From: Patescibacteria group bacterium
GTDB taxonomy: Bacteria > Patescibacteriota > Minisyncoccia > HO2-45-28
Length of the DNA stretch: 42,409 nucleotides
NCBI GenBank assembly: GCA_022563755.1
Contig: JADFMT010000002.1
Location: forward strand, 1 to 42,409
Reading direction: 5' to 3'
Shown one piece after another: positions 15,155-16,679 of this stretch. Under the pieces are notes generated by a model that saw only the letters and a list, made by a program, of their open reading frames with translations, searched no databases and had not been told where the DNA came from. The position numbers were made by a program, and so were the translations under genes. Position 1 is the stretch's first letter, and every line of letters starts with the position of its first letter.

Positions 15155-16679
<1,525 letters not shown>

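Follow-up and report, generated by a model that had tools for sequence, protein, structure and literature searches.

[quoted passage not shown] The question is raised by a locus in a Patescibacteria group bacterium (contig JADFMT010000002.1), of which a stretch of 42,409 nt, referred to here as the window, has been analysed. An earlier note, made from these nucleotides alone, had claimed that the 16S rRNA lacks the canonical CCUCC core after an intact helix 45, that no displaced 3' exon is evident and that the start sites are consistent with largely SD-independent initiation. We have examined the 16S gene and its flanks, the corresponding loci of relatives and the regions upstream of the genes.

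A complete 16S rRNA gene without CCUCC

The 16S gene was recovered end to end by the Rfam covariance model RF00177, with a score of 1403.9 bits (threshold 50), and this alignment confirms the encoded 3' boundary. The following features define its 3' end:

15155-16679, minus strand: complete 16S rRNA gene, 1525 nt (RF00177, model positions 1-1533, untruncated)
15168-15191, minus strand: intact helix 45, CACGGCUAGC-GGAA-GCUGGUCGUG, a 10-bp stem with a GGAA tetraloop (covariance-model alignment and hairpin scan)
15155-15167, minus strand: encoded 13-nt 3' tail, GAUUAUUUACUGA, where the RF00177 model has GAUCACCUCCUUU (covariance-model alignment)

The 3' block of the model, 'GcugGAUcACCUCCUUu', aligned to 'CGUGGAUUAUUUACUGA' in this gene, with the posterior symbol '*' at every position. 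Helix 45 is thus as complete as the earlier note had read it, and the five positions of the CCUCC core are indeed occupied by something else, namely UUUAC (15162-15158). The core is not found within 13 nt 3' of helix 45, the distance by which we define a canonical tail. String searches gave zero occurrences of CCUCC in the whole 16S and zero occurrences of CACCTCC and GGAGGTG across the 42 kb window. The encoded tail, GGAUUAUUUACUGA, is unable to pair with GGAGG-type sites. Sequencing runs searched for reads of the tail or trailer yielded matches only to conserved 16S words of other organisms.

Some further characteristics of the gene deserve mention. A perfect 16-bp hairpin (CCCAGCCUUAAAUUUC ... 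GAAAUUUAAGGCUGGG) at 15512-15565 resembles a lineage-specific helix extension. The primer sites carry CPR-type changes, GUGCCAGCAGCAGCGGUAA in the 515F region and CCUACGGGUGGCUGCAG in the 341F region (window 16160-16190 and 16330-16360), and standard amplicon surveys would tend to miss this gene. Helix 45 together with the U-rich tail GAUUAUUUAC (15158-15191, minus strand) matches the generic pattern of an intrinsic terminator, with longer U runs in several relatives; the likeness is probably coincidental, because the stem arm in the trailer beyond it is conserved.

The trailer, the precursor stem and an unlinked rRNA gene

The flanks of the gene contain the elements expected of a 16S precursor, along with two promoters and, at some distance, two tRNA genes:

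14941-15154, minus strand: 16S trailer (3' flank of the precursor), without CCUCC (string search and comparison with relatives)
14990-15012, minus strand: 3' arm of the leader-trailer (pre-16S processing) stem (inverted repeat and cofold; GAACGGGACAAAAUAAAG conserved in relatives)
16816-16838, minus strand: 5' arm of the same stem (inverted repeat and cofold)
17009-17036, minus strand: perfect sigma-70 consensus promoter, TTGACA-16-TATAAT (12/12 matches), candidate for the 16S transcript
14978-15007, minus strand: extended -10 promoter TGGTATAAT of the downstream DUF5679 gene (conserved in relatives L144, L164 and L170)
14604-14676, plus strand: tRNA-Ile(GAU), on the strand opposite to the 16S and 480 nt downstream of it
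10746-10819, minus strand: tRNA-Ala(UGC), 4.3 kb from the 16S

A leader-trailer stem around the 16S is the usual pre-16S processing helix. Here its arms measure 23 nt, are 91% complementary and enclose the gene between them. The 165 nt of trailer that lie inside the stem contain no CCUCC, so that a displaced 3' exon is ruled out at this locus, in keeping with what the earlier note had concluded from the trailer at 14941-15154. The architecture of the trailer (about 200 nt) is common to relatives L122, L123, L144, L162, L164, L197 and L212 (80-86% 16S identity), which keep the same order of elements: the AGUUAGGUCG motif, GUGUUGGCC (GUGUUGGYC) with a hairpin, the stem arm and the promoter of the downstream gene. 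For this DUF5679 gene the predicted mRNA starts with a leader of some 30 nt that contains no SD. On the other side, some 320 nt before the 16S, the consensus promoter overlaps the end of a GH1 gene, and together with the 17-bp hairpin without a T-tract that follows it (16881-16914) it possibly marks the start of the rRNA leader.

The 16S is unlinked: the 42 kb window has neither a 23S nor a 5S gene, and in 18 related loci the 16S was never adjoined by a 23S. tRNA-Ile(GAU) and tRNA-Ala(UGC), the classic pair of spacer tRNAs, lie scattered in the window.

Loss of the anti-SD is a trait of the lineage

We have scanned the species genomes of GTDB with the helix-45 frame AAGTCGTAACAAGGCA-N7-CGGAAG-N7-TGGAT, which returned 117 16S genes (GGCA-type helix 45), mostly from CPR/Patescibacteria MAGs. 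The frame is continued by C/UACCUCCUU in 68 of them, by AU-rich tails without CUCC/CCUCC in 47 (for example UAAUUCCAA, UAAUUCAAU, CAAUUAAAC and CAUUUAUUU) and by partial anti-SD motifs in two. Among the GTDB loci whose helix-45 stem arms match those of the window exactly, CUCC/CCUCC occurs only in L071, which has one base changed next to the GGAA loop. Metagenome contigs extend the observation well beyond one genome: CCUCC is missing from 117 of the 120 that share the exact helix 45, and the anti-SD-bearing ones have CACCUCCUU (one contig) or CACCUUCUU (two).

The best genome match to the window 16S is a Ca. Ryanbacteria MAG (82% identity), and the nearest relative among metagenome 16S sequences is L144 (86%). 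The exact helix 45 also occurs in MAGs labelled Kaiserbacteria, Nomurabacteria, Ryanbacteria and Paceibacterota, the labels being the submitters' own. GGAU-UAUUUACU is identical in the window, L144, L164 and L170 (86-87% 16S identity) and the sequences diverge beyond it, which suggests that these 8 nt are constrained and may form part of the mature RNA. A neighbour-joining tree of the last 900 nt, approximate and with its upper part distorted by intron-bearing sequences, places the window within a coherent anti-SD-less clade, the outgroups being canonical-tailed. The missing anti-SD characterises a whole clade, a large group of Parcubacteria, and is not a peculiarity of this genome.

The anti-SD-less state of this clade is already in the literature. 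Only 48% of Parcubacteria were found to have an anti-SD motif, and the lineages without it overlap with the group lacking uL1 (Tsurumaki et al., 2022, RNA 28:1041, PMC9297842). The window 16S shares with that subgroup its affiliation with Parcubacteria/CPR, in the same phylogenetic neighbourhood, the missing 3' CCUCCU and a small, unlinked 16S. That study (PMC9297842) provides the detection rate and the uL1 overlap only, and gives no tail sequences, SD statistics or initiation mechanism. It names neither the tail variant UAUUUACU nor the lineage of the window, whose nearest relatives compared here have about 86-87% 16S identity. As for the uL1 overlap, the rplK-rplA region lies outside the 42 kb window.

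Start codons without SD pairing

For the window statistics we took 36 ORFs that reach 120 aa or more and assigned their starts by a simple rule, not with a gene finder. A GGAG, GAGG or AGGA core at -20 to -4 precedes five of the 36, against 4.3 expected from shuffles (z 0.4). The duplex energy between the upstream regions (-22 to -2) and the canonical tail gave a z of 0.05, and the values for the own tail and for the tail extended into the trailer were +1.7 and -1.6; a z of -5.9 was reached in the positive control, which comprised 279 genes adjoining CPR 16S genes with canonical tails. The claim of largely SD-independent initiation is therefore well founded for the window, where SD cores are at chance level. 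Over 47 anti-SD-less loci, complementarity to the own tail was likewise absent (z +1.3), and permuting the tails among loci had no effect (z 0.8), from which it follows that no new SD/anti-SD pair has evolved. On the strength of these duplex tests, a new SD matching the new tail was rejected for the window as well as for the pooled loci and the extended tail.

The five SD-like starts listed in the earlier note are all there, in differing strength: GGGAG at 9769, AAGGAG at 13163 and 13894, only AAGGA at 21198 and AAGGAGG at 37656. A GGAG core at SD spacing precedes four window genes (speH, the 209-aa P-loop gene, the AAA_28 gene and a DUF3179 gene), which is near chance. Three of these sites are:

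37663-37667, minus strand: GGAGG (in AAGGAGG), 7-11 nt upstream of the speH start, the strongest SD-like site of the window
13171-13174, minus strand: GGAG (in AAGGAG) upstream of the gene of a 209-aa P-loop protein, in a segment missing or rearranged in a second assembly (L240, see below)
13884-13887, plus strand: GGAG (in AAGGAG) upstream of the ATG at 13894 of an AAA_28 NTPase gene

Conservation of the speH site was considered as evidence of selection and discarded. The site recurs in the only homologue found, in L241, but this has about 90% DNA identity, with the intergenic region (87%) kept no better than the coding sequence (83-91%), and is too close for conservation to be informative. 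Upstream of secA, the genes hpf, pdaD (pyruvoyl arginine decarboxylase) and speH make up a small polyamine cluster (37273-38648, minus strand), whose order is the same in L241.

At the left end, an ORF of at least 916 aa (3-2750, minus strand), without significant Pfam domain, leaves the window. Six plus-strand ORFs at 94-2658 were rejected as genes, being shadows of this ORF, and stand outside the 36-ORF statistics. Towards the right end there are five tandem overlapping paralogues of 178-235 aa (39005-42291, minus strand; 32-51% mutual identity), without confident Pfam domain; the four full-length ones have an N-terminal hydrophobic, signal-like segment.

What does precede the start codons is a promoter-like signature. 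The top 4-mers at -20 to -4 of 512 genes from anti-SD-less loci are TACT, ATAC, GGTA and GTAT, which jointly spell TGGTATACT. In the same 512 genes, TAnA[AC]T hexamers starting at -16 to -9 number 115, against about 10 per 4-nt bin (about 20 over the eight positions). Within the window, -10 boxes start at -10 to -13 of the NT5C, EamA, mreB, murA, efp and PDDEXK (PD-(D/E)XK) genes. More widely, extended -10 boxes (TGGTATACT or TAAAAT) are seen 10-16 nt before many starts, for instance at window positions 13198-13209, 19210-20130 and 32066-32082. A box in this position would put the transcription start at the start codon or within a few nucleotides of it. About 20 window genes overlap the upstream gene or start at most 15 nt from it, and the A content of the window upstream regions is 37%. 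Leaderless or short-leader initiation and translational coupling are what these patterns point to in this CPR group.

Taken together, the evidence shows that the window carries the intact, unlinked 16S of a member of an anti-SD-less clade of Parcubacteria, and we regard it as highly probable that initiation in this organism is SD-independent and the SD-like sites are a low-frequency residue. The ribosomes most likely find their starts by routes that do not involve the SD. One route would be provided by leaderless or very short-leader mRNAs, transcribed from the -10 boxes 10-16 nt before the starts; another by re-initiation within tightly packed or overlapping operons; a third by A-rich leaders that are probably unstructured. 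[quoted passage not shown] Going by the literature, the loss of Era in most CPR may also have helped, because Era binds GAUCACCUCC.

A residual peak of SD-like sites

The few remaining SD-like sites would, under SD-independent initiation, be a low-frequency residue, and pooling the loci reveals that this residue has a structure. In the 512 genes adjoining anti-SD-less 16S genes, GGAG/GAGG occurs 40 times at -12 to -9, against about 9 per background bin. The pooled frequency (7.8%) is close to that beside canonical-tail 16S genes (9.0%), indicating that SD use was probably marginal beforehand and that loss of the anti-SD barely altered the frequency of the motif. The persistence of the peak is not predicted by the simple picture of 'no anti-SD, therefore no SD'. 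The few strong GGAGG sites, which the earlier note had called unexplained, are near chance in the window taken alone, but the pooled peak is real and they are not simply to be set aside as chance.

An artefact of chimeric joins inside the 16S was rejected as the source of the peak, since it persists in genes 3' of the 16S (32 against 6.4). Restriction of the peak to loci with UUCC-containing tails was rejected as well; no tail subfamily is without it, and GGAA shows no enrichment.

The explanation that we prefer, tentatively and with more doubt than confidence, is that the residual sites are passive baggage of genes from SD-using donors, arriving in a continuous influx and not yet decayed. Most of the SD-bearing genes are accessory or lack annotation (GNAT, HAD, AAA_28, DUF444, DUF4015, PD-(D/E)XK), about half of them without a Pfam match, and their upstream intergenic regions have a median length of 152 nt, whereas the median for SD-bearing genes in canonical-tail loci is -4 nt; in the window, the 209-aa gene preceded by AAGGAG lies in a strain-variable segment. 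Core genes such as those for Mur ligases, SecD/F and a SpoU methylase, however, also bear the motif, a steady excess of 5% over an old clade requires the influx to be continuous, and neither the SD-bearing genes of the window nor those of the pooled loci deviate in GC or GC3. Recent transfer, as judged by composition, was for this last reason rejected.

A possibly rebuilt 3' end and the pyrimidine block of the trailer

Many anti-SD-less tails contain a small hairpin 3-4 nt after GGAU. Against shuffles, the 111 unique tails gave z values of 6.1 for the hairpin score and -5.6 for the minimum free energy; this shuffle test is what supports the hairpin, the MAFFT alignment being ungapped with the 3' arms out of register. 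The arms covary among relatives (L006-L239): UUCA/UGAA, UUCC/GGAA, UCCA/UGGA, CUCA/UGAG, GUC/GAC (GUCA/UGAC) and UCAC/GUGA. The window's own version (15140-15167) is weak, UUU-ACUG-AAA or GAA-ACU-UUC, and its tail region is predicted by cofolding to pair with the conserved trailer motif GGAACAGUUAGGUCGG.

A glimpse of how such tails may have arisen is offered by the canonical CPR precursors, in which the anti-SD is paired with a downstream GGGAG (CACCUCCUUUCUAGGGAG). Tails of intermediate appearance, CAUCUCCUUUUUAAGGAG (L037) and CACUUCCAAGAGGAA (L210), suggest that the stem may have been kept while the anti-SD sequence drifted. L071, with CACCUCCUUUC followed directly by UAUUCAAUUGAAAU, would fit an 11-nt deletion instead of drift.

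It is conceivable, if unlikely, that these Parcubacteria have rebuilt the 3' end of their 16S, with its covarying mini-hairpin, and that about 5-8% of their mRNAs carry a genuine GGAGG read by a partner other than the tail. Such a reader would be an RNA or protein that has so far escaped recognition, or else a subset of specialised ribosomes.

A very improbable reading is that the anti-SD has been displaced, with the mature 16S reaching into the trailer and a pyrimidine block there acting as a weak or alternative anti-SD. The window has such a block, CUUUCCC, 13-19 nt after GGAU, with counterparts CUCCUCUCC in L162 and CUCUCUUCC in L123; in these two relatives (81-83% 16S identity) a CUCCU-like block 13-14 nt after GGAU is homologous to ACUUUCCCG of the window. 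UUCC could pair with GGAG through one G-U, and weak SD-like sites exist in the window. Yet wherever the block occurs it forms the 5' arm of a hairpin in the trailer, it is absent from the closest relatives L144 and L164, and the enriched upstream motif is GGAG/GAGG and not GGAA. Nor is there significant complementarity in the upstream regions, be it in the window (the z of -1.6 given above) or in 560 genes with own versus permuted trailers (z -0.13). In 400-nt trailers taken from 157 anti-SD-less loci, CCTCC itself is neither enriched nor conserved in position (34 occurrences, against 45 of GGAGG and 37 of CCTTC). A displaced CCUCC in the trailer, absent from that of the window and unenriched in these 157 loci, was rejected. 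The L162/L123 block pairs with a downstream GGAGG and could be the remnant of a displaced anti-SD.

A second 16S, or another RNA, with a canonical CCUCC tail could serve the SD-bearing minority of genes through heterogeneous ribosomes, which we hold to be very improbable. Some of the pooled SD-like sites are extended to GGAGGUG, complementary to CACCUCC, as such a tail would have it. CPR genomes, however, typically have one set of rRNA genes, and no second 16S was found within the 42 kb window or at any related locus examined; moreover, the SD-like frequency is even over 134 loci, without overdispersion (p 0.19). A precedent for two classes of 16S tail has been described in Alteromonas (Amin et al., PMC6107228).

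The tail of the window is also present in a second contig, L240 (ENA ERZ23499870, scaffold_428), reached through the DUF5679 protein. L240 and the window are 99.3% identical; 13 mismatches and some 1 kb of rearranged sequence set them apart, but over the last 250 nt of the 16S and the entire trailer the identity is 100%. The rearranged segment (window 12497-13478, L240 1926-2305) is a strain-level indel or rearrangement that alters or removes the NT5C and 209-aa P-loop genes. Since this independent contig carries the identical tail and trailer, we take the tail to be genuine. Metagenome contigs often break or join within the 16S, and L240 itself starts inside it, but that the tail reflects misassembly or chimera formation at a conserved rRNA end, or a 16S gene decaying into a pseudogene, is hardly credible given two assemblies that differ elsewhere, a tail contiguous with a trailer whose architecture relatives keep, more than 160 related loci in the same state, and a gene with a full-length score of 1404 bits, intact helices 44 and 45 and a flanking processing stem.

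Relation to other losses of the anti-SD

Loss of the anti-SD has been reported from 15 of 1,182 genomes (Lim et al., 2012, PMC3457768) and from 128 of about 20,600 taxa (Amin et al., 2018, PMC6107228), among them some Flavobacteriia, Blattabacterium, Sulcia, Carsonella and other insect symbionts, and haemotropic Mycoplasma. As in the Parcubacteria, the C residues of CCUCC have been replaced by U or A, the genomes are small, the lifestyle depends on a host or partner, and no compensating SD variant matches the new tail (PMC3457768, PMC6107228). These genomes have no SD-like signal, whereas the Parcubacteria relatives keep a small GGAG/GAGG peak (PMC3457768, PMC6107228). The phyla are different, and the loss is independent of that in the Parcubacteria.

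The ribosomes of Bacteroidota retain an anti-SD that is sequestered and not used, and their leaders are A-rich and Kozak-like. Largely SD-independent initiation and A-rich upstream regions are common to them and to the window lineage, but they still encode CCUCC and the window lineage does not. No A signal at -3/-6 is seen here. Systems dominated by leaderless mRNAs (Actinobacteria, Deinococcus, haloarchaea, mitochondria) have the -10 box about 10 nt before the start codon, as here, and together with MazF-type removal of the anti-SD they illustrate that ribosomes without an anti-SD are able to translate 5'-terminal AUGs. Leaderless bacteria do encode the anti-SD, however, and MazF-type removal is post-transcriptional and bound to stress, whereas in the window lineage the absence is genomic and constitutive.

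Significance

The window contributes a new tail variant and a new lineage to a state already described, and no new principle. [quoted passage not shown] Gene finders that rely on models of the ribosome binding site will mis-call starts in anti-SD-less CPR genomes. The clade offers a natural setting in which to study how start codons are chosen without SD pairing, be it through leaderless mRNAs, coupling or A-rich leaders, and it lets one ask why a few SD-like sites survive.
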